DNA of 64,000 nucleotides from Candidatus Lloydbacteria bacterium RIFCSPHIGHO2_02_FULL_50_18 (GCA_001821395.1 MHLM01000014.1:160001-224000); one strand, 5' to 3'; counted from the first letter of the stretch, positions 129-39,033 are shown. Made by a program: numbers and translations. The notes: generated by a model from the sequence alone, not told the origin.

Positions 129-314
129 ATGGAAAAAGAAATACTTGAACAAATCAAATATCAAAACAGTCAGCTAAGAGACATCTTTATCTTCTTACTT
201 AGCAGAGAAGGGTATAACGATTCAGAAATACGAGCCATTGTCGGAAGTGTCGATAATAATAAAATTAGAAAAATAAGTGCAGGCCTCAAAAGAATTAAGA
301 AACTTAAAAAATAG
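129..314 (+). CDS. small HTH protein (sigma-70 r4-like), paralog 2
   Basis: 61-aa ORF; motif REGYNDSEIRAIVGSV; starts 3 nt after previous stop. Confidence 0.5.
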   Translation: MEKEILEQIKYQNSQLRDIFIFLLSREGYNDSEIRAIVGSVDNNKIRKISAGLKRIKKLKK

Positions 315-315
315 C

Positions 316-486
316 ATGATTAAGAAAAATCAAAATAATGAAAGTGATCGGACATCTGACTTGGTGATGAAATTACTTATACTTGAACTCGCTAAATTCG
401 GTCTACCTCAAGGCGAAATAGCAAAGAAGCTTTGCGTAAACATTGTGGTTGTTAATGACTTTCTTAAAGGAATAAAACTTAAATAA
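316..486 (+). CDS. small HTH protein, paralog 3
   Basis: ATG at 316 two nt after stop of previous ORF (track lists longer overlapping start 277); motif KFGLPQGEIAKKL. Confidence 0.45.
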   Translation: MIKKNQNNESDRTSDLVMKLLILELAKFGLPQGEIAKKLCVNIVVVNDFLKGIKLK

Positions 487-487
487 T

Positions 488-646
488 ATGGCAAAAAAGA
501 AAAGCGAGAAACTTGAACCACTAGAAGAAATTAAAAGGCTTCTTGTATTGGGGCTAGTAAATCAAGGCGTAAAAGGGAAAGATATTGCAGCTGTTCTTGA
601 CGTTGATCCTGCAATAATTAGCCGACTTTTGTCTCCCAAAAAATAA
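488..646 (+). CDS. small HTH protein, paralog 4 (52 aa, below ORF-track cutoff)
   Basis: ATG 488 directly after TAA 484-486; translates MAKKKSEKLEPLEEIKRLLVLGLVNQGVKGKDIAAVLDVDPAIISRLLSPKK with the same G-x-x-x-x-(E/D)I-A motif. Confidence 0.45.
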   Translation: MAKKKSEKLEPLEEIKRLLVLGLVNQGVKGKDIAAVLDVDPAIISRLLSPKK

Positions 647-650
647 ATTT

Positions 651-863
651 ATGAATGAAAATACGGATATTACAAAACGTCTTGATGCAATTGCTTTGCT
701 ACTTTTAAAACTACTGCCAAAGGAAACACTTGGACCCGATCAGGACAAGATACTATTTTTTAGTAGCCTCGGCTATTCAAATACTGAAATAGCAAAGTTG
801 TTGCTCAAAACTCCAAACCAAGTTAAATCACTTCTCCACTTAGGAAAGAAGAAGAATCAATAA
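651..863 (+). CDS. small HTH protein, paralog 5 (clear sigma-70 region 4/LuxR-like HTH)
   Basis: 70 aa; FFSSLGYSNTEIAKLLLKTPNQVKSLLHLGKKK. Confidence 0.6.
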   Translation: MNENTDITKRLDAIALLLLKLLPKETLGPDQDKILFFSSLGYSNTEIAKLLLKTPNQVKSLLHLGKKKNQ

Positions 864-1619: not shown

Positions 1620-1922
1620 ATGAGTCGCATGAATAAATTTCTCTTTGGGCTTGCGGTTGTTGGGCTTTTTGGCATCGTGGCGCCTGAAACATCAGCTCAT
1701 CCGGGTAATACCGCCTCCGATGGTTGTCACTACTGTCGCACAAATTGTGCCAAGTGGGGAGAGGTAGAAAATGCAAGACACTGTCATGGAAGCAGTAGTT
1801 CTGCGGGTCGCTCAAGTAGAGCTAATGATGATGGGGGTAGTGGAGGATGGCTGTGGCCCATCGCGGGCATAGCTGCTGGAGCCGGTGTTGTATATTTTGG
1901 TGGCAAGAATAAGTCTAAATAA
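1620..1922 (+). CDS. small secreted Cys/His-rich protein with C-terminal TM anchor
   Basis: signal-peptide-like N-terminus (FLFGLAVVGLFGIVAPETSA), CHYCRTNC...HCHG cluster, Gly-rich hydrophobic C-terminus; ORF track starts at TTG 1599. Confidence 0.5.
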   Translation: MSRMNKFLFGLAVVGLFGIVAPETSAHPGNTASDGCHYCRTNCAKWGEVENARHCHGSSSSAGRSSRANDDGGSGGWLWPIAGIAAGAGVVYFGGKNKSK

Positions 1923-2176
1923 AACGGAGACGAGCTCGCTAGGGGGGCAGACTCCTCCTTTTTCAAGCAATTATTTTGCGTATAAGGAAATTGGTGAAAA
2001 TTTTATGAAGCTGTTGCGCTTAGAGAAAACTGATAATATTAAATCAAGCTGTTATCGTGGCATGATTTAAGTTTAATAAAAGAAAACGGGATAAGCCCAC
2101 AACCTAAAACTTACTGATCGTATGGAATATAAATTTGGAGGTGCTCGGGTGGCGATTGTGGTGTTATAGTAAAGAC

Positions 2177-2929
2177 ATGAATAGATTGAAGCAGGCCTTC
2201 GATACTAAAGAAAAATTATTTTGGTTGGGCTATTGGATTATCAGTCTTTCCGCTATCGTTGCATTCTTTTTTCGGGTTGTTCCGATGCAAGCGCAGCATC
2301 CCGAGAGGGCTTATGAGAATAGCGCCATTTTCGTTATTCCTTTTCTGGTTCTGTTTGTTGTATTGCGTGTGTTATCTAAATTTCGTGATTTAAACAAATT
2401 TAAACAGCGTTTGATTATTGTTTATCTTATCTGTCTTTTTGGAGCGGCAGTTTTGTTCTGGCCGTCTCGAGTGGATGATGCTCAGGTGTTACTATGGCTA
2501 CTCTTAATCTCATTTATTGCAGCCACCTTACTTGTTTTTGGATATTCACTCGTAAGAATAGAAGAATCAAAAAAATCATTTTTAATGAAATTTGTTTTAA
2601 TTTGCATTCTATTTTCCCCTGCACTTTTTGTCCCTGCCGATGTATGGATAAGTAGCGGGATAAAATTTCCGCATCTTTGCGAAACACAAACCATTAATCA
2701 TCCTGGTGTTCCGATTGACTACGTTTGTACGCCAGAGATGGGACTATGTGGACGAGGTCTACCTTCCGCCGGGGAAGGGTGGTCAGATACAAAATCCATT
2801 TGTATCTGGGATTTACAAGCTGGGTTAGGTCTCATTTTCAGTACCTTGTTCAGGTTTTTTTACTCATCCTTGATCGCAATCGTAATTACCATAAAAACGG
2901 GGAAAAGTGGAGATAAGTCCTCGACCTAA
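2177..2929 (+). CDS. multi-pass membrane protein, unknown function
   Basis: several hydrophobic helices; first in-frame ATG at 2177 (track start 2135 is TTG). Confidence 0.5.
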   Translation: MNRLKQAFDTKEKLFWLGYWIISLSAIVAFFFRVVPMQAQHPERAYENSAIFVIPFLVLFVVLRVLSKFRDLNKFKQRLIIVYLICLFGAAVLFWPSRVDDAQVLLWLLLISFIAATLLVFGYSLVRIEESKKSFLMKFVLICILFSPALFVPADVWISSGIKFPHLCETQTINHPGVPIDYVCTPEMGLCGRGLPSAGEGWSDTKSICIWDLQAGLGLIFSTLFRFFYSSLIAIVITIKTGKSGDKSST

Positions 2930-2994
2930 AATTTCCCGACTGCAGGAAGCATAAATTTGGAAGTACTCTTTGTGGTGATTGATTTCTGAAACGC

Positions 2995-3022
2995 GTGGTC
3001 AAATTTGCAAAGTCCTGATGGG
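2995..3022. repeat. 28-bp intergenic repeat GTGGTCAAATTTGCAAAGTCCTGATGGG (copy 1)
   Basis: identical 28-mer at 3717-3744; variant at 5441-5467; each lies next to a minus-strand terminator hairpin. Confidence 0.8.
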
Positions 3023-3038
3023 ATATTTGTGAATAAAA

Positions 3039-3062
3039 AAAGCCCCGCGGATGCGGGGTGAA
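3039..3062 (-). terminator. rho-independent terminator of 3072..3425 gene
   Basis: CCCCGC-GGAT-GCGGGG stem followed by T-run on minus strand. Confidence 0.6.
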
Positions 3063-3071
3063 TGGCAGGAA

Positions 3072-3425
3072 TTACCGAGCCGAGGACTGTATTTTTTCTA
3101 CTTCCTCGGCGAGTTTTTGTGCGAATGTGCGCAATGCTTCGATTTCTGCCCCATCGTTAACACCAACCATGTAGACCTCGCCGCCCCAGAAATGGTTCTT
3201 TACGCGAACCTCAGTGTAGACAGTGTCCCCCTCGATCGGTTCATGTGACAATGACTCGACTGCAAAATGCATATGTCGATAAGGTGAACATACGCCAAGC
3301 ACGAATGCGGGTTTTCCGTCCGCTAAGGTTCTCTTGATGACCGCTTTGTCGCCAGCAATTGCCTTGATGGCCTCGACGATATTGCGACCCATCACGCTCT
3401 TCATCTGTACAAGATCAGATCCCAT
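3072..3425 (-). CDS. hypothetical protein (117 aa)
   Basis: clean ORF with own promoter and terminator; no family recognised. Confidence 0.5.
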   Translation of the reverse strand: MGSDLVQMKSVMGRNIVEAIKAIAGDKAVIKRTLADGKPAFVLGVCSPYRHMHFAVESLSHEPIEGDTVYTEVRVKNHFWGGEVYMVGVNDGAEIEALRTFAQKLAEEVEKIQSSAR

Positions 3426-3454
3426 AAATACCTCTTTAAATACAAAACTAACTC

Positions 3455-3485
3455 ACATAATACAAGTTAAATTGTAAATGTCAAA
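3455..3485 (-). promoter_or_regulatory. sigma-70-like promoter for 3072..3425 (TTGACA-16-TATTAT on minus strand)
   Basis: plus-strand tgtcaa at 3479-3484 and ataata at 3457-3462. Confidence 0.4.
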
Positions 3486-3716
3486 CAACATGAAAATGAG
3501 GTAAGCATGATAGAAAACGGGGATAAGCAAACGACCCCAGGATGGATTGGACGCCTTATCCGTTGATGATTTCTCCGCCATTCGGATGAAGTACTTGTCC
3601 TGTCATGAACGAAGAATCCTCTGACGCGAGAAATACGAATGATGGAGCGATTTCGCTTGGCTGTGCTGCGCGTTTCAAGATAGAATTTAAGTAAGTCCCA
3701 TTGATTCTTGATTCGT

Positions 3717-3744
3717 GTGGTCAAATTTGCAAAGTCCTGATGGG
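3717..3744. repeat. 28-bp intergenic repeat (copy 2, identical to copy 1)
   Basis: exact match to 2995-3022. Confidence 0.8.
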
Positions 3745-3754
3745 GGAGTGGTGT

Positions 3755-3785
3755 TAAAAAATGTGCCGCACATTACTGTGCGGCG
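3755..3785 (-). terminator. terminator hairpin GCCGCACA-TTACTG-TGCGGC
   Basis: stem-loop with T-run on minus strand downstream of 3795..4115 ORF. Confidence 0.45.
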
Positions 3786-3794
3786 GGGAGGGGA

Positions 3795-4115
3795 TTAGCA
3801 GGTCGGTCGACGAATCCACCAGCCTGCATATTTGTCGTCAACAAGGTGGTTACGCCAGCCGTTCGGTCCAGCGAGTTCGGTTATCCGAACTCTCAGGAAT
3901 CTGGATGAAGCATTGTCCATTTTCATTGCGTTCGGCGGGATGAAAAGGAAGCCATCCGCGCTTACCTCTGCATCGCTCGGCACCATTCCCGTCAGGAGAA
4001 GTAATAGTGCATCAAACTCCTCCCGCTTTGTTTCATTGCGCGTGCTAGATTTCATTGCAAGTCTCCTTGTTCGTGGAAAAAGATCTGACCGCGGGATAAT
4101 AGCATGAATATACAA
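3795..4115 (-). CDS. hypothetical protein (106 aa), weak
   Basis: ORF followed by terminator and 28-bp repeat; overlapping + ORF 3832-4107 makes coding strand uncertain. Confidence 0.3.
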   Translation of the reverse strand: MYIHAIIPRSDLFPRTRRLAMKSSTRNETKREEFDALLLLLTGMVPSDAEVSADGFLFIPPNAMKMDNASSRFLRVRITELAGPNGWRNHLVDDKYAGWWIRRPTC

Positions 4116-4195
4116 CTAAGTCAATAGCGCTCAGTTTCGCTCACATGGGGGTCTTGTTCCCATTCACGATTGATCTACGTGCGCAGCAAGAAAAA

Positions 4196-4220
4196 CACCC
4201 CGTTTTTTTCGGGGTGTCAC
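4196..4220 (-). terminator. terminator ACACCCCG-TTTTTTT-CGGGGTGT
   Basis: hairpin plus T-run downstream of lipoprotein gene. Confidence 0.5.
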
Positions 4221-4236
4221 AGGTTTGTCCTTCGGT

Positions 4237-4713
4237 TTATTTCTTTTGTTCAAGTATTTTTCGGATATCTTTTTCGGCAGCACGGTCTGCCGCACGCTGC
4301 TCCTGGTGAGCAAAGAGGACCCGAACCGATGAGGCCAATTCTCTTGGCTCCATTTCAATGATCGCCCCTTTTGTGCAGAGTCCAAATTTCGTCGAATCGG
4401 TGCGATGTGCAACCAGGTAATGCTGATCTTCTTTTGCATTTTCCTCAAGCATTGCCCGCGCCAAGGTTCCATTCTTGTTGTTGTGTACAGAAACAATCGG
4501 CGTCAGATACGTGACCCAGCACAGAGAAGGTGTGGTGTCTTTTCCCGACAGAATATCGTTCGCGTTCACTGTGTTCGTGAGTATCGTGTTCGGGAACAAT
4601 CCGTTGGTGCCTATGGGGGGCAGTGGCTCCATCGAGCTCTTGTACCCGCTGTCTGTACAGCCGGCGGCGATGAGTGTGGTCGTCAGGACGAGGGCGGTGG
4701 TCAGATATTTCAT
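4237..4713 (-). CDS. lipoprotein (signal peptide + lipobox LIAAGC)
   Basis: start MKYLTTALVLTTTLIAAGC at ATG 4713 with AAGGAG upstream; longer track ORF (to 4851) is upstream read-through. Confidence 0.6.
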   Translation of the reverse strand: MKYLTTALVLTTTLIAAGCTDSGYKSSMEPLPPIGTNGLFPNTILTNTVNANDILSGKDTTPSLCWVTYLTPIVSVHNNKNGTLARAMLEENAKEDQHYLVAHRTDSTKFGLCTKGAIIEMEPRELASSVRVLFAHQEQRAADRAAEKDIRKILEQKK

Positions 4714-4948
4714 TAAAGACTCCTTGCTGTTGAAAATTTTTTCTGCATGATTTCTATCACAGCAATCAACATGTGTCAAGAAAACGTAATAGTTCAATAG
4801 CTTGGACGCAAAGTATCCATTAAACTTCGCGTCATATGCCATACACAACAAACCCTGCCCTGCTCCGCGTCCGTCGCGATGCGGCTGCTATGAAAACGTG
4901 GACAGTCACAATTGATTTCTGGGGTTCACTTCGCTCGCCAGAGGAGTC

Positions 4949-5006
4949 AGCGACCAATTTTTCTTAACGGTACTCCGTCTTAGAAAAATGAAGTACTCTC
5001 CGTGGT
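4949..5006. repeat. 58-bp dispersed repeat (copy A), second copy at 38526-38583
   Basis: AGCGACCAATTTTTCTTAACGGTACTCCGTCTTAGAAAAATGAAGTACTCTCCGTGGT vs near-identical copy 33 kb away. Confidence 0.7.
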
Positions 5007-5035
5007 AAAATAATTCCTTCCTAATTCTATTCTCT

Positions 5036-5076
5036 TATTCGCGCGAATAGGCGAATAGATTACAGAGTGTTATGAT
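5036..5076 (+). promoter_or_regulatory. candidate ArsR operator (14-bp palindrome TATTCGCGCGAATA) plus extended -10 TGtTATGAT
   Basis: perfect palindrome 5036-5049 with partial third half-site GGCGAATAG, 37 bp upstream of the arsR-family gene. Confidence 0.45.
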
Positions 5077-5085
5077 GGCAATATC

Positions 5086-5346
5086 ATGAAAGAGATCGAG
5101 AAACAGATGAGGGCGCTCGCGAATGGCCGACGACTGGCCATTCTCAAGTATCTGAAAAAAATCAAGGAGGCGAACGTGGGGGAGATTTCGGAGGAGATCA
5201 AGCTTTCATTCAAGGCAACATCCAAGCACCTGGGTATCTTGTATGCGGTGGGCATAGTAGAGAAAGATCAACTCGATCTCACGATAAATTATCGGCTGGC
5301 AAAGGACCCTCATGTTGCGGTGAGACAAATCCTTTTTATTCTCTAA
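5086..5346 (+). CDS. ArsR/SmtB-family transcriptional regulator
   Basis: LANGRRLAILKYL...VGEISEEIKLSFKATSKHLGIL HTH pattern. Confidence 0.75.
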   Translation: MKEIEKQMRALANGRRLAILKYLKKIKEANVGEISEEIKLSFKATSKHLGILYAVGIVEKDQLDLTINYRLAKDPHVAVRQILFIL

Positions 5347-5440
5347 TTCCTTCCTGCGAAGGCAGGCGCGATCAAAATATCCTGAGTGAAGCGATCAGCG
5401 ATATGAAGTACTCTTATTGTGATTGATCGTGCTGGTCCGC

Positions 5441-5467
5441 GGGGTAATTTTGCACAGTCCTGATGGG
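5441..5467. repeat. 28-bp intergenic repeat family, variant copy 3
   Basis: GGGGTAATTTTGCACAGTCCTGATGGG; upstream 5403-5430 also matches copy-1 flank (GAAGTACTCTT..GATTGAT). Confidence 0.6.
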
Positions 5468-5471
5468 ATAA

Positions 5472-5505
5472 TATATTTCGATAAAAAATGAAGCGGGCGC
5501 CGTGG
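5472..5505 (-). terminator. terminator hairpin downstream of 5593..5829
   Basis: GC-rich imperfect stem AGCGGGCGCC/GGCGTCCGCT with T-run on minus strand. Confidence 0.4.
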
Positions 5506-5592
5506 CGTCCGCTGGGGATAGTGTTTTTTGAGAAGTGTGAGCTTCACCTTCGATTCATCGGACTCTCCTTTTGGTTAGGTCGTTTCAGGGCG

Positions 5593-5829
5593 TCAGCGCT
5601 TTTCGGCGGCGATGCGTCGCCCGCGCAGTTCTTCGACGGGGACAAATTTCCCGGATGCCTTGCGGTATCCCGGGTCGCCGTAGGTGGCACCATCCTGAAG
5701 CCGGCGGTGGTCGACTTGCATCGCTTCACCGTCAGCATCATAGAATGCGTTGTTCGCATCATCACTATCGCTGTCGGTTTGACCTCCGCAGCCAAAGGGC
5801 GTGTTGGTCAGAGCCTGAAAAGCATCCAT
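5593..5829 (-). CDS. hypothetical small protein (78 aa)
   Basis: ATG start; terminator plus repeat downstream; acidic N-terminus, basic C-terminus. Confidence 0.4.
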   Translation of the reverse strand: MDAFQALTNTPFGCGGQTDSDSDDANNAFYDADGEAMQVDHRRLQDGATYGDPGYRKASGKFVPVEELRGRRIAAEKR

Positions 5830-6277: not shown

Positions 6278-6350
6278 TATCTGGGGAATTACCATTTTTA
6301 AATTTAAGCTCACAATAAAAGATCCCGCACCAATTGTGCGGGATGAGAGG

Positions 6351-6752: not shown

Positions 6753-6904
6753 TTGCGCCTCCGGTATTTTTTATCCTTTCCCACTCTACTGCTTTATGAA
6801 GTGTTGTCAATTTCGCTCGTGACCACGTCGAAGTCCCATACTCCGGCGATCAGAGATTTCAAGTACTCTCCCGTGCAAGGCCGAATAGCCTCGTACCTGC
6901 GTTA

Positions 6905-7989: not shown

Positions 7990-8138
7990 CGTCTTACTCC
8001 TATGAAAAACTCAACTCTATCGACAACCTACCATAAAGATCATATATCGCAAGGGGAAGGGGTCACAATGATCGACCATGGAAAATGAGTGAATAAAAAA
8101 TGCCCCGCACAATGTGCGGGGCATGAAGATCATTGTCG

Positions 8139-9494: not shown

Positions 9495-12400
9495 ATGCAT
9501 ATATTTTTCAAATCATTGGTAGTGGGTGCGCTCTCCCTCTCTATACCATTTTTTGTCTCAGCAGAGGAAATACAACCAATTGTACCAGTATCTCAAATAC
9601 TCACAGATACGAATGAGATGAAGCCTATCGTGTTAGCCACTGTCAATCTTCAGAACGCCACCTCCACCCAAGAAGGACACACTTTCACTATCTCCTTCGA
9701 TCTGACAAATCGCGTGGGTGTCCAGCCTGGAGTGAAATATAGCGTAGTACTTATTAAGGAAACAGCTGTTGGGCAGACGATCGTAGATGAGCACGTATAT
9801 GACGAAACGATCAATCTGGGTGAAAATAGTTCTGTTCATAAAGTGGTCAATTACGCGCCCCCAACGAACATAGTGGGAGAGTACCTCCTCTTTATTTCTA
9901 GTGAGAACACAAGTGGATTTCCATTTGGACAAGCGACACTTGGAAAGGTGATCCTCAAGAGGAGTGATGCAGCTCAAAACCCTATTGTTATTGATACCGT
10001 AAGTTGCTATCTCACCGTAGAAGGGGAAAAAGATCAGCCTCACTATGCGCCTCGCCAGGGAGTCGATATCTCGATCGTTGAAAAATTACAAAGCAATTGT
10101 ATCGTAGAAAATACCTCGAATGTTCCAACTACCGCCACTCCTTCTTTTGTCACTCGCACCCGTTCCAATTTTGGTGAGATAGTATCCACGCAAGGTGGTG
10201 ATATGAACGCTGTTATATTTGCGCCGAATGAAAAAAAGACAATAGTAACATCTCTTCCAATATCGCTTACTCCACAATCTTACAATGTAAATCTTAAATA
10301 TGGAGCAACGAGTAATGAGATCTCCTACCACTATGTGATACAGGGCGCAGGCGGGACGATACAGAACATTCTTTTGGACAAAGATGCGTACGTCAAAGGG
10401 GAGACCGCAAATATTTCATTCATGTGGTCGCCTTCTGCCGATGGGTTCCCATACTCTCGTCAGGGGGCAAGTACTCAATTAACAAGTCCTTCCTTTGCTA
10501 TTTCGCTTGTTGATGAAACGGGAAATTCTTGTGCCAACTCCTTTAATCAGCCTCTATTGAGTGATGATATTCTTGTCCAAGCAAAGATAGCTATTATCTC
10601 TTCTTGTATTCATCCAAGAGCGAATGTGACGCTTGCCGATGCGAAGTTGGGGGTATTGGCACAAATGTCTTTTGAAACGGCCACGACGCCATCCCCATCA
10701 ATTCCGCAAAAAGAAACAAATACAAAAAACATCCTTGCGGTGATGCTGGTTATCCTTCTATCGGTGATATTTGCTTTTTTGATCTATCGTAATAAAAAGG
10801 TTCACTCTCTTCCCGTTGGCCCGCTTGTACTTCTCTTCGTGATCGGGTTCATGTTCACTCATGCGGAGATTGCGAGAGCGGATACGTTTTATACCGGATT
10901 TACTGGTACTACTCTTGTGAACGTATCGCTTAACAAGACTTCGTATGCCCCGGGGGAGCCGATGACAATAACTGGGTCAATAACCGTTGCTGGTTGTGCA
11001 AACTCAGGAGATTGGTATCTTCTTAAATACGGTGTCGATCTAGCTGTGGGCCCCTTTACCGGAGCATACCTCATTAGTCAGCGAATCGCTGGGGGGAGCA
11101 CTATTTTTTCTTCAGCCACTGTACCTGCCCCGCTGTTGGCAGGAAGTCATAGAGTCAATTTTCTTACTACGACAGGTTGGGTTGTCAGCAAATCTTATTT
11201 CTTACCTTTCACTGTTAATACTCCTTCTTGTACTGGCGCGACTCCCTGCGGTACTCCGGGTTCTTGCTTCGCAAAATCCGGCTGCAATAACGTCTGTGGC
11301 TCTACCGCCGTCAACGACTGTGCGGGTACCTGCGGAGGAGGCGCCGTAGACTACAATGGTGCAGTTGCAGGCTGTGGTTTCCCTGCCTGTACTGGAGCGA
11401 CTCCCTGCGGTACTCCGGGTTCTTGCTTCGCAAAATCCGGTTGTGATAACGTCTGCGGCTCTACCGCCGTCAACGACTGTGCAGGTACCTGTGGAGGAAG
11501 AGCTACCGACTACAATGGTGCAGTTGCAGGCTGTGGCGGACCACTTTCCATCACCGCAAACCCTGTTGCACCGATCACGCTTCCCACCACGACATTCACC
11601 TCTACGTATTCACTTACGAACGGTACGTCCGCGAACACGAATTGTCGTTTGCTTGATAATGCAAGTAATCCGCTCACCGGATATACTCCGTGCTCGGGGA
11701 GTATCGCCTACAACACTCCTGCTTCACCCGGTGCGTATGGTTATAATGTCCAAGCATTTAAGTCCTTGACCGGTGAGATCAAGACAAGCGCATTTACCGT
11801 GACGGTGAATGGTGCTGGCTGTTCCGCTACAACGATCGAGAACTGTGCACTTCCCGCAACCGCGACCGGAGGAAATGCGGGGAGTTGTAATAGCGGATAC
11901 GTCGGTTCCTGTAATTTCTCGTGTATGAACCGCGTATGGTCCTCGAATTCAAACTCCTGTACATTGATCCCTGCTCCCATCGTTACCGCCACAATAAACG
12001 GCGCGGCGACCGCATCGATAGGCTCGGGCGCACCATTCACCCTCGCAATGACCTCAAGCGGTGTTGGAGGGGGAACATGTTCATGGAGCCGCTCATCGGT
12101 TGCAAACAATCTCGGAGGAGATTTTGGGTTCGCGGCGATCCCCACAGCGAACGGGGGACCACAACAGTTCAACACCAACAATGTATTCTCCGGATGGAGG
12201 GGCCCAACAAAAGTGACTTGGATATTCAAATGTGACAATGGGTTCGGGCTCTCCACCTCAAGGTCTGTGGAACTCACCATTGCCGCTCCTGTTCCAGCGA
12301 TAACAATCAATCCGATCAATAATCTGCTTTTCGGTGATGTTCCGCTCAATAATACTCGTATTCGGACGTTCACCATCACAAATACCGGAGACATCGGTTC

Positions 12401-12935
12401 ATGGCTTATTGGTACGGTGACGACCGGAAATCCTCGTTTTGTCTGTACGGAAAGATGTACCTACGACCTTGGTGCGGGGGAAGTACAGACTGTGACCGTT
12501 ATCTTCACCCCTGGCGTTGTCGGTCCGATCTCTGCGTCAGTACTTTTCAACGGTAATCCCTCTCCCACGTTAATCTCTTCGGGAAACGGAATCGCACCAG
12601 TCATCATTGTTCCGGCATCGGTCGATTTCGGCAATGTCCCGATTATTCGCACTAAGGACCTCAGCTTTGTCATCAAAAATATTGGTACGGTAGATCTGGG
12701 CCTCACTACTTTTTGGGGGTATAATGCGCCGTACACCTGTATCTCCATGGCGACCTGCGCTCAAAACGGGATCAATCTTGCTCCAAACGTCGTGAACACG
12801 GTCACGTTACGGTTCTCTCCGACGGCCGCCATCGTCTACCCGACGCAAATAGGTACACTTTCCGGTCAGCCGCTTTACGCCATCCCTATCAGCGGTACCG
12901 GAGTGCAGCCGGTGTTCAATGTGAAGGAGCAGTAA
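9495..12935 (+). CDS. large (1146 aa) cell-surface protein with central TM hairpin, two tandem Cys-rich repeats and C-terminal ASH/Ig-like beta domains
   Basis: N-terminal signal peptide; internal ILAVMLVILLSVIFAFLIYRNKK + LPVGPLVLLFVIGFMF hydrophobic pair; repeats CTGATPCGTPGSCFAKSGC..; C-terminal FGDVPLNNTRIRTFTITNTG.. / VDFGNVPIIRTKDLSFVIKNIG.. motifs. Confidence 0.75.
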   Translation: MHIFFKSLVVGALSLSIPFFVSAEEIQPIVPVSQILTDTNEMKPIVLATVNLQNATSTQEGHTFTISFDLTNRVGVQPGVKYSVVLIKETAVGQTIVDEHVYDETINLGENSSVHKVVNYAPPTNIVGEYLLFISSENTSGFPFGQATLGKVILKRSDAAQNPIVIDTVSCYLTVEGEKDQPHYAPRQGVDISIVEKLQSNCIVENTSNVPTTATPSFVTRTRSNFGEIVSTQGGDMNAVIFAPNEKKTIVTSLPISLTPQSYNVNLKYGATSNEISYHYVIQGAGGTIQNILLDKDAYVKGETANISFMWSPSADGFPYSRQGASTQLTSPSFAISLVDETGNSCANSFNQPLLSDDILVQAKIAIISSCIHPRANVTLADAKLGVLAQMSFETATTPSPSIPQKETNTKNILAVMLVILLSVIFAFLIYRNKKVHSLPVGPLVLLFVIGFMFTHAEIARADTFYTGFTGTTLVNVSLNKTSYAPGEPMTITGSITVAGCANSGDWYLLKYGVDLAVGPFTGAYLISQRIAGGSTIFSSATVPAPLLAGSHRVNFLTTTGWVVSKSYFLPFTVNTPSCTGATPCGTPGSCFAKSGCNNVCGSTAVNDCAGTCGGGAVDYNGAVAGCGFPACTGATPCGTPGSCFAKSGCDNVCGSTAVNDCAGTCGGRATDYNGAVAGCGGPLSITANPVAPITLPTTTFTSTYSLTNGTSANTNCRLLDNASNPLTGYTPCSGSIAYNTPASPGAYGYNVQAFKSLTGEIKTSAFTVTVNGAGCSATTIENCALPATATGGNAGSCNSGYVGSCNFSCMNRVWSSNSNSCTLIPAPIVTATINGAATASIGSGAPFTLAMTSSGVGGGTCSWSRSSVANNLGGDFGFAAIPTANGGPQQFNTNNVFSGWRGPTKVTWIFKCDNGFGLSTSRSVELTIAAPVPAITINPINNLLFGDVPLNNTRIRTFTITNTGDIGSWLIGTVTTGNPRFVCTERCTYDLGAGEVQTVTVIFTPGVVGPISASVLFNGNPSPTLISSGNGIAPVIIVPASVDFGNVPIIRTKDLSFVIKNIGTVDLGLTTFWGYNAPYTCISMATCAQNGINLAPNVVNTVTLRFSPTAAIVYPTQIGTLSGQPLYAIPISGTGVQPVFNVKEQ
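11224..11546 (+). repeat. near-identical tandem 162-bp repeat x2 (encodes 53-54 aa, 8-Cys module)
   Basis: two consecutive copies differing at a handful of nucleotides. Confidence 0.85.
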
Positions 12936-29300: not shown

Positions 29301-29909
29301 TTGAAAAGGAGACCCATCATGGGGAAACTTATCACAGAGACACCGTACTCGGAGATTACTGCAACGATGGAGTTGCTCGATTCTTTTGGTGTGTCACGGG
29401 AAGATCTGACTCGGTTCAGGAAGGCTTCGTGGGAATTGAAGACGAGGGTGGCTGGCCTCATCATCCATGGCGTCTCTCACAGCGCCACAATATCCGTCGA
29501 CTACAATATGCCTCTCAAGGCAATGATTGTCTCCGGGCTTTACGATTGGGTGAACAAGAATATCACTGAAGAACACTTCCCGATTGCGGAAAGTGGAGTG
29601 GCAAATATCACGGTTGAGCTGGTGCAGTTTGGTCGAAAGATTTTATTCGATGATGCCGTCGCCGAATTGCGTCGTCGCGATTTACGCCCCGCAACCCTGG
29701 CCGAGCTCCTTGCGTTCGGTAATGCGTTCCCCATGGAGCAGTGTAGGTACCCTATTGTGGCGCTTGGCTCCGATGCGATCGTCGACCGCCTTCGGTACGT
29801 CGCATTTATCAGCAAAGAGGGTTCGGATCGGGTTCTCGACCTCGAGTCTACGTTCGGTTATTTTTTTGGCAACGCTCGTTTTCTTGCCGTGTGCAACAAA
29901 GATCTATGA
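29301..29909 (+). CDS. hypothetical protein, cassette paralog A (202 aa)
   Basis: AAAAGGAG RBS; weak similarity to 30200..30799 product. Confidence 0.55.
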   Translation: MKRRPIMGKLITETPYSEITATMELLDSFGVSREDLTRFRKASWELKTRVAGLIIHGVSHSATISVDYNMPLKAMIVSGLYDWVNKNITEEHFPIAESGVANITVELVQFGRKILFDDAVAELRRRDLRPATLAELLAFGNAFPMEQCRYPIVALGSDAIVDRLRYVAFISKEGSDRVLDLESTFGYFFGNARFLAVCNKDL

Positions 29910-30199: not shown

Positions 30200-30799
30200 A
30201 TGATTAGAGAAAGATTGGCGATCGCTGATGTCACTGGTGGGCAATTGAATGCCATCGTCAAAAAGATCAAAAAAGCTGGCGGAGTTGATGGCGTCCAACG
30301 CTTCTTGTCCGACGAACTCATCGTCACCGCAAAGGAAGACACCATCATCCGCATCACGCGTCCGGTCAAACCGACCTACCCCGACTGGGTGAAACAGGTG
30401 ATGCACCCAGAACTAGAAGACGTGGGTCCAGGCGAGTACGATCTCGCTTCCATCGACCTATGGCTCGATGAGCGACAGATGAAGAGTAGTGACTACATGA
30501 GACAGATGGGGCGGGTCTACGGAAGCGTTATCTACGAAGATTTCAAACACAACGACAGACTTAAAACCTGTCTCGGCCTCCGAGATGCCGAGGAGATCCA
30601 AAAGAAGGGCCCCGCCGTTTTCCGCCGATGCTTCGGCAAGAAAGCGTTGTGCTTTTGGAAGTCGGTTGTCTGCAGCACGGATCTTAATCTCCACGTCCCG
30701 TGTATCTACGTGTTAAATGATGATGTGGTGATAAGTTGGTACCGGCTCGACCTTCACTGGTCGAGCGACGACAACCTTGCGGCGCGTTTCACAAGTTAG
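30200..30799 (+). CDS. hypothetical protein, cassette paralog B (199 aa)
   Basis: CAAGGAG RBS; shares short motifs with paralog A. Confidence 0.55.
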   Translation: MIRERLAIADVTGGQLNAIVKKIKKAGGVDGVQRFLSDELIVTAKEDTIIRITRPVKPTYPDWVKQVMHPELEDVGPGEYDLASIDLWLDERQMKSSDYMRQMGRVYGSVIYEDFKHNDRLKTCLGLRDAEEIQKKGPAVFRRCFGKKALCFWKSVVCSTDLNLHVPCIYVLNDDVVISWYRLDLHWSSDDNLAARFTS

Positions 30800-38445: not shown

Positions 38446-38472
38446 AACAAAGCAAATGGAGTTATTTTGCAG
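38446..38472. repeat. 27-bp direct repeat AACAAAGCAAATGGAGTTATTTTGCAG (copy 1)
   Basis: identical copy at 38628-38654 overlapping 3' end of receiver gene. Confidence 0.8.
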
Positions 38473-38525
38473 ATATTCATTCCTGCCAGAAATAGCTCCA
38501 GTTGCGCGGCGTGGAGAAAGCAACG

Positions 38526-38583
38526 AGCGACTAATTTTTCTTAACGGTAACCCGTTTTAGAAAAATGAAGTACTCTCTGTGGT
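38526..38583. repeat. 58-bp dispersed repeat (copy B)
   Basis: matches 4949-5006. Confidence 0.7.
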
Positions 38584-38627
38584 GGAAAGCATATTCCCAT
38601 ATGTTGACTGAGTTGCAGAGGCTCCAC

Positions 38628-38654
38628 AACAAAGCAAATGGAGTTATTTTGCAG
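38628..38654. repeat. 27-bp direct repeat (copy 2)
   Basis: see 38446-38472. Confidence 0.8.
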
Positions 38655-39033
38655 GAATGAGTTTTTCGCGGATGCGGGCGACTAGTGCCTCAAGGCTCCA
38701 CTCAGCCTTGATAAGAAAATCCGTATCTCCAAAACTCGAAACACGAGCGATAGTTTGTGCGTCGGTTGAATTCGTGAGCACGATGACATGCACGTGCTTG
38801 CCCCATGCGTCCTCGCTGCGCAGTTTAGAAAGCATGGTAATGCCATCCATGCGCGGCATAAAGATATCGAGCAGAATGATCGCCGGATGTTTCTCCAGTG
38901 CGACCTTGAGTCCCTCCAGTCCATCGACTGCCTCAAGAGCGACGAATCCCTCGTCAGTGAGTTTGTCGACGAGCACCTTGCGAAGGGCGATGTCGTCTTC
39001 AACGATAAGAACAGATTTATTTTCTATATCCAT
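38644..39033 (-). CDS. stand-alone response-regulator receiver domain (CheY-like)
   Basis: VLIVEDD...LLDIFMPRMDG...VIVLT. Confidence 0.8.
   Translation of the reverse strand: MDIENKSVLIVEDDIALRKVLVDKLTDEGFVALEAVDGLEGLKVALEKHPAIILLDIFMPRMDGITMLSKLRSEDAWGKHVHVIVLTNSTDAQTIARVSSFGDTDFLIKAEWSLEALVARIREKLIPAK

Follow-up and report, generated by a model that had tools for sequence, protein, structure and literature searches.

Short intergenic modules around a 28-mer motif in a Patescibacteria genome: a lineage-specific unit beside terminators and a widely dispersed hairpin element

CPR bacteria (Patescibacteria) have very small genomes packed with genes, and the general view is that these contain few repeats and little mobile DNA. 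The BOX elements of Streptococcus pneumoniae are modular boxA-boxB-boxC intergenic repeats. REP sequences end on one side in an unpaired GTAG or CGTC tag (PMC3733652); their copy number usually exceeds 100 per genome, and in REP/RAYT systems two inverted cognate REPs enclose the RAYT gene (PMC2817692). Here, we describe a mosaic of three modules, designated U, m and K, in a 64-kb stretch of a Lloydbacteria genome (64,000 nt, referred to below as the window).

An earlier note on this DNA had reported a 28-mer, GTGGTCAAATTTGCAAAGTCCTGATGGG, present in two identical copies and one variant, each with a minus-strand terminator hairpin to its right. Our analysis bears out both observations: the first two copies are exact, the third matches at 24 of 28 positions, 100 shuffled controls gave 0 matches, and the gaps between the 28-mer and a minus-strand terminator-like hairpin are 20, 20 and 24 nt. 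The motif copies, the larger unit U to which they belong and the adjoining hairpins are:

2995–3022, plus strand: 28-mer copy 1, core of unit U (exact match)
3717–3744, plus strand: 28-mer copy 2, core of unit U (exact; identical in sister contigs L011, L027 and L028)
5441–5467, plus strand: 28-mer copy 3, a variant (24/28, one base deleted; by alignment)
2979–3040, plus strand: unit U copy 1 (repeat family D3; alignment A4; nhmmer E = 1e-18, a circular value because copy 1 itself is in the profile)
3692–3762, plus strand: unit U copy 2, without hairpin element m (homology with L011 and L027 begins at 3692)
5423–5488, plus strand: unit U copy 3 (repeat families D3 and D5; nhmmer)
3043–3058, minus strand: terminator hairpin of gene 3072–3425(−), called by the terminator scan
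3765–3784, minus strand: terminator hairpin of gene 3795–4055(−), called by the terminator scan
5492–5513, minus strand: terminator-like hairpin, then TCATTTTTT on the minus strand, read from the sequence

All three copies of the 28-mer in the window lie on the plus strand. Copy 3 reads GGGGT-AATTTTGCACAGTCCTGATGGG, and the 19-nt core TTTGCAMAGTCCTGATGGG was observed three times against 0.01 expected. Copies 1 and 2 match at 28/28 positions, while the preceding 10 nt agree at only 5/10 and the downstream sequence diverges. Neutral simple duplication does not predict such identity amid diverged flanks; it points either to constraint on the site or to a short patch of gene conversion. Unit U measures about 65 nt, contains the 28-mer and extends to the A-run preceding the hairpin; in copy 1, ATTGATT and 10 variable nt precede the 28-mer, after which come about 12 nt and the A-run, which is the T-tract of the minus-strand terminator. 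The plus strand of U has stop codons in all frames, and the minus strand is open but without a start codon; coding of a small protein was rejected.

The earlier proposal of a full unit of about 60 bp has to be replaced by a longer, modular arrangement, in which copies 1 and 3 consist of a hairpin element of 57–62 nt, m, followed by U, and copy 2 lacks m. The upstream segment said to be common to copies 1 and 3 was recovered (2960–2985 versus 5405–5428), and this segment, GAAGTACTCT..GTGG, turned out to be the 3' tail of m. No 10-mer of the window is more over-represented than its first part, GAAGTACTCT, which was found 4 times, each time on the plus strand, versus ~0.05 expected.

All three hairpins beside the motif combine a G+C-rich stem-loop with a T-run, as intrinsic terminators do; the one at 5492–5513 was missed by the scan because its T-run begins 3 nt past the stem. 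The placement after terminators is real for the three copies, but as a general rule it is not shown, since the homology of U itself enters the A-run flank of the hairpins and since other minus-strand terminators (4194–4218, 6322–6344 and 8104–8124) carry no 28-mer. Alignment A4 was suggestive of U-like remnants at terminators 4157 and 8062, but these were rejected, as GTCCCATTGATT with up to 3 mismatches was found 55 times versus 67 expected. The genes adjoining the motif are unrelated small ORFs of unknown function.

Element m consists of GCGACC, an A/U-based hairpin and then GAAGTACTCYNNGTGGTG. In the window, it occurs with the short module K as follows:

2917–2978, plus strand: m fused to U copy 1 (TCGACC, hairpin, GGAAGTACTCTTTGTGGTG; covariance model R1 23.8 bits, E = 4e-4; 86% identity over 50 nt with an element in GCA_043743715.1)
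5364–5422, plus strand: probable copy of m, a weak match, fused to U copy 3 (GCGATC, AAAATATC-CTGA..TCAG-GATAT, GAAGTACTCTTATTGTG; R1 15.5 bits, E = 0.08; nhmmer E = 0.002)
4946–5008, plus strand: canonical type-I m, upstream of the ArsR operator and gene (R1 87.4 bits)
38523–38585, plus strand: canonical type-I m (R1 85.8 bits; repeat family D4; 91% identical to 4949–5006), whose flanking context recurs in Lloydbacteria loci L076, L087 and L125
2090–2152, plus strand: degenerate K+m segment, upstream of gene 2177–2929 (repeat family D6; 74% identity to 2912–2968; not detected by R1)
6846–6869, plus strand: partial m-like piece, GCGATCAGAGATTTCAAGTACTCT (repeat family D13; 88% identical to 5391–5414)
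2895–2923, plus strand: module K, AAACGGGGA..GATAAGTCC, immediately to the left of m in copy 1
3515–3527, plus strand: solitary module K (pattern match, weak on its own)

Module K at 2895–2923 supplies the last codons of ORF 2177–2929, and in L027 its counterpart AAACGGGGATAAGTCC adjoins U on the left. On its own, K is weakly enriched (3 matches versus 1.1 expected).

A scan of GTDB representative genomes with the pattern AAATN{0,3}GAAGTACTCYNNGTGGT returned 93 loci, 83 of which had the full architecture on inspection, with record titles naming Lloydbacteria, Kaiserbacteria, Parcubacteria, Paceibacterota, Saccharibacteria and Patescibacteria. Several loci occur per MAG, at times in tandem: counted in 8-kb pieces around exact matches, the JAYTUL MAG has at least 10 loci, and the window itself has 4–6 copies. 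Model R1 found 108 copies in 661 kb. Of 85 copies of the element, 90% or more begin with GCGACC, and its 19-nt 3' tail is almost invariant across Lloydbacteria, Kaiserbacteria and Saccharibacteria records. Since the types of m differ in hairpin length, the stem was evaluated with a hand-set structure and a covariance model instead of RNAalifold on the raw MAFFT alignment. Both-side changes were seen in 12 of 13 pairs of the covariance-model alignment, a count biased toward the model structure, and 92% of stem cells were paired, versus 72% in shuffled controls and 43–60% with the partner columns slid. An independent MAFFT alignment of type-I m gave covariation in 5 of 13 pairs, with 96.5% of cells paired.

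Copies of m lie mostly between ORFs, and their orientation is unbiased with respect to neighbouring genes (21, 16, 13 and 13 in the four classes) and to GC skew (45 to 48). Since the stems of m covary and its orientation does not follow that of the genes around it, a role as a promoter, 5'-leader or terminator was rejected. Tiny ORFs after GGAAG..GTG range from 2 to 36 codons and are not conserved, and were likewise rejected as coding. The counts of G-U versus A-C in m (16 to 10) do not decide the strand of action, and no protein family was associated with m at the loci examined.

Matching sites with and without m were compared in four cases, and no target duplication was seen: L095 was set against L084, window position 38636 against L122 and L065, and L027, with a single C between GATAAGTCC and ATTGATT, against copy 1 of the window, which has m there. 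Being inserted or missing at matching sites, m looks like mobile or recombining DNA. Its left flanks vary (AGCA, ACGA, TGTA, GTCC), the flanks are mutually complementary beyond mismatched controls (p = 5e-5), and inverted doublets or tandems occur in L059, L131, L083 and L112. Neither m nor U had a match in phage, plasmid or viral collections. Element m corresponds to no Rfam family, and no description of such a CPR element was found in the literature searched; it is apparently a previously undescribed small hairpin element.

Unit U was absent from GTDB genomes, viral contigs, phages, plasmids and 748 kb of m-bearing CPR loci. Among the collections searched, its relatives were found only in contigs of the same groundwater population, and U appears confined to this Rifle groundwater lineage. 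The 28-mer itself had no match in GTDB representative genomes, viral contigs or the 748 kb of other CPR loci, which speaks against the earlier suggestion of a conserved regulatory site.

Comparison with sister contigs places changes of synteny at the left edge of U copy 2, which abuts a gene remnant:

3556–3678, minus strand: short-chain dehydrogenase remnant, last 37 residues (Pfam adh_short_C2, profile positions 198–234 of 236, E = 1.3e-8)

Homology with L011 and L027 begins at this edge (3692), contig L025 ends at 3692 and contig L022 at 3700. The homology with L027 spans only 3692–4153 at 93% identity, with different neighbours on both sides, and this 462-bp block comprises U, the terminator, an 86-aa gene and the promoter of that gene. 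Contigs L029 and L030 part ways directly after AAACGGGGATAA. At the K/U junction, three different continuations were found among the contigs compared, and the junctions share only ~3 nt (TAA). Judging from the truncated dehydrogenase gene, the other neighbours in sister contigs and the assembly breaks, the 5' edge of U is a rearrangement breakpoint, and the recombination hotspot proposed earlier thereby gains support for the 28-mer unit. Between the window and its 93%-identical relative, U (53 nt) shows 0 differences and the next 73 nt show 5, which may be taken as weak evidence of constraint (P ~0.03–0.04 by estimate).

The explanation that we prefer, with a probability of roughly 0.55, is that U and m represent mosaic DNA between genes, selfish or recombinogenic, that marks shuffled small-gene cassettes and has no signal function. 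The 28-mer would be the best-conserved block of the lineage-specific, non-coding U in a variable small-gene region of a Patescibacteria genome. Element m, dispersed through many CPR genomes, behaves like a small non-autonomous mobile element: it keeps its stem by compensatory changes and both single-stranded ends almost unchanged, and in many cases the tip of an older palindrome is where it sits. The junctions of exchanged promoter-gene-terminator cassettes and truncated genes are occupied by U, m and K; the 28-mer would have been copied along with the terminator flank, via duplication or inter-module recombination, and would now serve mainly as portable homology and breakpoint. Its position beside terminators could arise because the A-run flank of the hairpin was copied as part of the unit and because, in a genome so dense in genes, such DNA is tolerated in the short gaps behind gene ends. 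Beyond the observed repeat structure, distribution, covariation, filled and empty sites and breakpoints, we infer mobility in trans, a copying mechanism and the lack of function. Several observations count against the mosaic explanation: the 28/28 identity of copies 1 and 2 amid diverged flanks, the nearly fixed motif-to-hairpin distance of 20–24 nt, the unchanged 53 nt of U as a weak sign of constraint, and the fact that no enzyme capable of moving m or U was found in the sequence examined.

A Y1 transposase gene adjoins U in L011 and L027, and none is encoded in the window. A link between Y1 and m was rejected, as genes of the Y1 family occupy conserved core-gene neighbourhoods, carry flanking repeats of their own and show no enrichment near m (a Y1 gene within 8 kb of m at 1 of 83 loci). 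The Y1 genes in L032/L095 are flanked by two identical 21-nt inverted copies of AGGGGTCAGACCCTCCTAAAA, and the one in L034 by two similar inverted hairpin copies, AGGGGACAGTCCCTC and GGGGGACAGTCCCTC; these repeats had no further copy in ~750 kb, and no m was found next to Y1 genes.

A possible, though tentative, alternative is that m is a new superphylum-wide structured repeat of Patescibacteria, whose invariant single-stranded ends are read by a conserved host or domesticated protein. Under this reading, copies of m could form a population of vertically inherited, REP-like replicators that are recognised by a new logic: tip and ends stay conserved, the arms vary freely, and the loops of existing palindromes take up the insertions. 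Or m could act as a functional module of RNA or DNA, for instance in processing or insulation, which CPR genomes reuse at many loci. In that view, the 28-mer unit would extend m in one lineage.

That the 28-mer is a protein-binding site beyond terminators (an operator or a termination/insulation site) held by selection appears unlikely. The identity of copies 1 and 2 between diverged flanks, the fixed hairpin distance and the lack of substitutions in U against the 93%-identical relative all agree with it, as do an 8-bp palindrome within the motif (TTTGCAAA) and six tandem small HTH genes 2 kb away. However, copy 3 does not preserve the palindrome (TTTGCACA), only three copies of the motif occur in the window and none in the other genomes searched, the adjacent genes are unrelated, other nearby terminators lack it, and the ArsR gene beside copy 3 has its own clear operator palindrome, separately, at 5026–5059.

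It is improbable that U is a plus-strand small RNA gene of ~90–125 nt ending at the hairpin and antisense to the convergent mRNA 3' end, starting near the m tail or, for copy 2, from a TTGGCT-18-TAGAAT site. This promoter-like site (3657–3686) does lie just upstream of U copy 2, the fold of the plus strand of copy 1 is slightly more stable than in shuffled sequence (z = −2.1), and a plus-strand T-run comes after the copy 3 hairpin; but such a run is missing at copies 1 and 2, and the copy 2 promoter lies in window-specific sequence absent from L027. No fold is conserved across the three copies of U (consensus energy −4.9 kcal/mol, with an unfavourable covariation term). At gathering thresholds, Rfam detected a tRNA-Arg alone in the whole window, and at E ≤ 10 it gave nothing meaningful in window positions 1900–5700 or in L033 8900–9479. 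A sigma-70 scan (−35/−10 hexamers, 16–18 nt spacing, ≥9/12) called copy 3 only (9/12, plus strand, 5449–5477) and left 28-mer copies 1 and 2 uncalled on either strand; U contains no convincing promoter. With no conserved fold, Rfam match or consistent promoter, the earlier suggestion of a small-RNA terminus is not supported.

It is also doubtful that U and K form an attC-like recombination site at cassette 3' ends, used by a site-specific recombinase. Such a system would suit the 462-bp U-terminator-ORF-promoter block shared with L027 between differing neighbours, the three continuations at the K/U junction and the genes truncated at module edges. Against it, Pfam annotation revealed no recombinase or integrase within ~10 kb either side of the motif, complementary RYYYAAC/GTTRRRY core sites were not seen on reading the sequence, U-like remnants at other terminators do not exceed expectation, and the ~3-nt junctions fit illegitimate better than site-specific recombination.

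Very improbable is a minus-strand promoter in the reverse complement of the 28-mer that restarts transcription past the terminator: copies 1 and 2 can be read as TTGCAA, 17 nt, and AGAAAT or AAGAAT, but these fall under the scan threshold, whereas the genuine promoters of this region in the promoter scan are near-consensus TTGACA/TATTAT; copy 3 has no −10 element, and downstream lie only the antisense of a plus-strand gene (copy 1) and a pseudogene (copy 2), replaced in L027 by an unrelated gene in antisense. A sigma-54 promoter, a hammerhead core (CUGAUGA), box C/D, a CtsR box, a dif/XerCD site and a tRNA-like fragment were each dismissed on reading the 28-mer, as spacings or key bases misfit, and ARAGORN and Rfam gave nothing.

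In annotating the window, the 28-mer should not carry a regulatory-site label; it marks the junctions of shuffled cassettes and truncated genes. Element m would serve well to mark genome dynamics in uncultured CPR bacteria, and would also be a cause of assembly breaks and a lead to whichever conserved protein reads it.

Among known systems, integron attC sites resemble U in its location at the 3' end of small ORFs in a mostly co-oriented array, in its inclusion of a variable hairpin, and in cassette-like blocks that differ between relatives. Unlike integron cassettes, these blocks carry their own promoters and terminators, neither U nor m has RYYYAAC/GTTRRRY core pairs, no integrase is nearby, and the conserved block of U lies on one side of the hairpin only. 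Like MITEs and the palindrome-associated elements derived from IS200/IS605 (PATEs), m is small, non-coding, hairpin-bearing and insertion-polymorphic, and it shares the lack of target-site duplication with IS200/IS605 derivatives. In contrast to MITEs, it has neither terminal inverted repeats (GCGACC and GTGGTG are not inverted copies) nor target duplication; in contrast to IS200/IS605 elements, it has no fixed 5' target tetranucleotide and no GC-skew strand bias. No autonomous element matching m was found.

The likeness to REP, BIME and REPINs (PMC2817692, PMC3733652) is closer, as m is also a short extragenic imperfect palindrome with conserved unpaired ends. By the definition of REP as an imperfect extragenic palindrome of 20–40 bp, m qualifies (13-pair stem, 92–96% paired), and U is not palindromic. 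Element m is also present several times per genome and insertion-polymorphic without target duplication, and m-bearing genomes encode single-copy RAYT-like Y1 proteins (P0001 and P0042: NF047646 59–75 bits, cut-off 80; IS200 21–24 bits). Unlike REP, it has no GTAG/CGTC tag but GCGACC at the 5' end and a 19-nt invariant 3' tail; the REPIN pattern is reversed, with tip and ends conserved and arms varying; it is conserved across CPR groups (Parcubacteria-type lineages, Saccharibacteria), whereas REP is species-specific; it does not avoid divergent intergenic regions; and the copies seen in 8-kb pieces around matches number tens rather than hundreds. The RAYT-like genes of CPR bacteria have, on either side, 21-nt inverted hairpin repeats of their own instead of m. 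The earlier suggestion of a REP-like site is supported for the behaviour of the upstream segment, which is dispersed, stem-conserving and present or absent at matching sites, and not for the features that define REP/RAYT, which m does not show.

BOX elements differ from the present repeats in sequence, to which there is no similarity, and in their far higher copy number, and also in that here module m is superphylum-wide and module U limited to one strain lineage. What the two share is their construction: K, m and U form a mosaic of short modules, occurring in full, partial and rearranged combinations near gene ends.

The 28-mer described in the earlier note occurs exactly at 2995-3022 and 3717-3744 (0 matches in 100 shuffles), and its variant third copy at 5441-5467 matches at 24/28 positions and lacks one base; a 19-nt core is found three times against 0.01 expected. 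A G+C-rich hairpin with a T-run on the minus strand does lie to the right of every copy, at 20–24 nt from the 28-mer; two of these hairpins were called by a terminator scan and one by eye. The other minus-strand terminators of the region are without the 28-mer. Copies 1 and 2 are perfectly identical despite diverged flanks, and the motif is unchanged against a 93%-identical relative and keeps nearly the same spacing from the hairpin. These features could reflect a binding site under constraint or, equally, a patch of recent conversion; on the whole, we regard the binding-site reading as improbable. Taken alone, the 28-mer is a modest finding; the notable result is the hairpin element that accompanies it.

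The repeat is built of modules: U, the unit with the 28-mer as its core; m, the hairpin element; and K, a short module to the left of m or U. U consists, in order, of ATTGATT, 10–13 variable nt, the 28-mer, about 12 nt, and an A-run that is the T-tract of the minus-strand terminator. The upstream segment which the earlier note saw shared by copies 1 and 3 is real, but it is the 3' tail of m, a module of 57–62 nt separate from U. No other 10-mer of the window is as over-represented as GAAGTACTCT, whose four copies are all on the plus strand.

Copies of m and K in the window
2090-2152, degenerate K+m copy
2917-2978, m directly before U copy 1
3515-3527, solitary K
4946-5008, further m copy
5364-5422, m directly before U copy 3
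6846-6869, partial m-like piece
38523-38585, further m copy

U copy 2 is without m and is preceded by TAAGTCC. In the related contig L027, AAACGGGGATAAGTCC (module K) stands before U; the window has this module before the m of copy 1 as well, so K-[m]-U in copy 1 and K-U in L027 form a filled/empty pair.

No copy of U turned up in GTDB genomes, viral contigs, or 748 kb of m-containing loci of CPR (Patescibacteria). A metagenome scan gave one true relative, L011, with longer versions (L027 and L028) from the same aquifer; ten other matches were due to chance. A stretch 100% identical to the window is present in a Rifle groundwater MAG (GCA_001818945.1, contig MHLI01000006.1), and some twenty near-identical contigs of that site added no divergence, several of them ending exactly at motif copy 2. 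No conserved secondary structure, promoter holding for all copies, or coding potential was found in U.

Around copy 2, L027 matches the window only over 3692-4153 (93% identity), a block comprising U, the terminator, an 86-aa gene and its promoter, and flanked left and right by different neighbours. Directly before 3692, all that the window has of a short-chain dehydrogenase is its last 37 codons; the equivalent place in L027 holds a 39-codon ORF, which terminates within the repeat modules and lies beside a gene for a Y1 (transposase-type) protein. This ORF had no match in Pfam and, by its N-terminal sequence, can be read as a putative truncated nucleotidyltransferase-like gene. Yet another continuation after AAACGGGGATAA is seen in L029 and L030, which implies at least three haplotypes at the junction in the aquifer population; in these contigs this third arrangement (968-1120) lies downstream of the Y1 gene, and the 39-codon ORF runs into unrelated sequence after that point. 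The ORF at 2177-2929 ends inside K+m. Together, the truncated ORFs and differing neighbours identify the module edges as rearrangement junctions, which have only about 3 nt of overlap in common.

Scanning one genome per GTDB species with the pattern AAATN{0,3}GAAGTACTCYNNGTGGT yielded 93 loci. On inspection, 83 share the full m architecture, namely GCGACC(W)A, a hairpin with an A/U-rich base, and then (G)GAAGTACTCYNNGTGGTG(C); the remaining 10 were chance matches within genes of unrelated bacteria. The 83 loci come from records with the titles Lloydbacteria, Kaiserbacteria, Parcubacteria group, Paceibacterota, Patescibacteria group or Saccharibacteria; the conservation of m between CPR groups, as named in these titles, is unusual. 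Several MAGs carry 3–10 loci each, and Lloydbacteria MAGs share the conserved flanks of one repeat copy. The hairpin exists in three types, one with tandem G-A pairs (CGAC/GGAG) and another in which the strands of that hairpin are swapped. On Saccharibacteria contigs (L059 and L131), m forms head-to-tail arrays with the junction GTGGTGCGACC. These arrays (L059, about 2700-2823; L131, 2570-2800; contig CAZLUD010000001.1 and another) alternate hairpin types with a period of about 54 nt and bear a superficial likeness to a repeat-spacer array.

With 24 type-I copies as its basis, a covariance model recovered 108 copies of m in 661 kb. In the model-fitted alignment, 12 of the 13 stem pairs are changed on both sides and 92% of cells are paired, compared with 72% in shuffles and 43–60% with slid partners; in a model-independent type-I alignment, 5/13 pairs covary and 96.5% of cells pair. 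The element had no match in Rfam, was not found in viral contigs, phages or plasmids, and has no published description in the literature searched.

The orientation of m is independent of flanking genes (21, 16, 13 and 13 across four classes) and of GC skew (45 to 48), and no recurrent protein family adjoins it. Corresponding sites hold m in one genome and lack it in another, and the target is not duplicated in any of these pairs: GGAAGGACAA joined to GTAGTGCG in L095 and GGAAGGACGA[m]GTAGTGCG in L084; CAACAAAGCA joined to AATGGAGTTATT at window position 38636 and CAACAAAGCA[m]GGTGGGGTTATT in L122 and L065; GCTGTA joined to GT.. in L084 and GCTGTA[m]GTAG.. in L064 and L095; and the K-U and K-[m]-U pair of L027 and copy 1. 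The flanks of m are mutually complementary above mismatched controls (p=5e-5), with 19/83 loci beyond the 5% tail of these controls, so that a larger palindrome often has m at its tip; some of the palindrome arms recur within one genome, e.g., MHLS01. In all these respects, m behaves as a small non-autonomous mobile or copy-and-insert element does.

Several MAGs (L064 1290-1500, minus strand; L084 7100-7260; L095 330-470) share a second palindromic element that is conserved (GGTGTTCGAGAAGCTGTAG..CTACTGCTTCCGAAC.., then GGGAAGGACGA / GTAGTGCGCCAAA) and into which m is inserted at two defined positions. In the window, a perfect 27-nt direct repeat (38446-38472 and 38628-38654) encloses 155 nt with m and a small hairpin and includes the stop codon of a response-regulator gene (38644-39033, minus strand); it looks like a local duplication or else an insertion whose duplicated target is unusually long. 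In both the window and L027, m lies just upstream of the region of an ArsR-family gene and a 34-nt palindrome (TCTATTCTCTTATTCGCGCGAATAGGCGAATAGA), which is likely the operator of that gene. The palindrome occupies 5026-5059 in the window, upstream of the gene at 5086-5346, and 1879-1912 and 2301-2336 in L027, the second copy following the gene.

Elsewhere, a segment repeated at ~890 bp spacing (29203-29250/30086-30133 and 29929-29992/30823-30886) contains two neighbouring ORFs of about 200 aa (29301-29909 and 30200-30799). It includes a 64-nt repeat (84% identity) that surrounds a hairpin (CCCGCGC..GCGCGGG) with TTTT after it, and it resembles a local tandem duplication that has no relation to U and m. 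Window 129-863, with further cases in L013/L021, holds six or seven tandem paralogous genes for HTH proteins of 52-74 aa (Sigma70_r4_2, HTH_23), directly downstream of rpoD, dnaG and rpoC and adjoining the variable region. A 1146-aa Cys-rich surface-type protein (9495-12935) contains a 159-nt tandem duplication (repeat 11223-11536); its called length ranges from 428 to 1199 aa across L013, L021 and L022, which points to repeat-number variation or assembly collapse.

Overall, mosaic selfish or recombinogenic intergenic DNA is the best explanation, with a probability of roughly 0.55. Its parts would be U, which is lineage-specific and holds the 28-mer, and m, a CPR-wide hairpin element with conserved structure and polymorphic insertion; m is an element of the REP/MITE kind.

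CPR genomes encode single-copy Y1 proteins nearer to the RAYT model than to IS200, but under the cut-off, and their genes are bracketed by their own inverted hairpin-forming repeats, not by m. The Y1 gene of L032/L095 has two identical 21-nt inverted copies (AGGGGTCAGACCCTCCTAAAA; L032 9954-9974 and about 10676-10696), and that of L034 two inverted copies that are similar, not identical (AGGGGACAGTCCCTC / GGGGGACAGTCCCTC; 9954-9968 and about 10655-10670); no other copy of these repeats was found in about 750 kb of CPR sequence, and Y1 genes are not enriched near m. A GTAG or CGTC tag belongs to the definition of REPs (PMC3733652), whereas m has no such tag. Cognate REPs must flank the RAYT gene (PMC2817692), while m does not lie beside the CPR Y1 genes. 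The element m is REP-like in its working, yet it falls outside the REPs.
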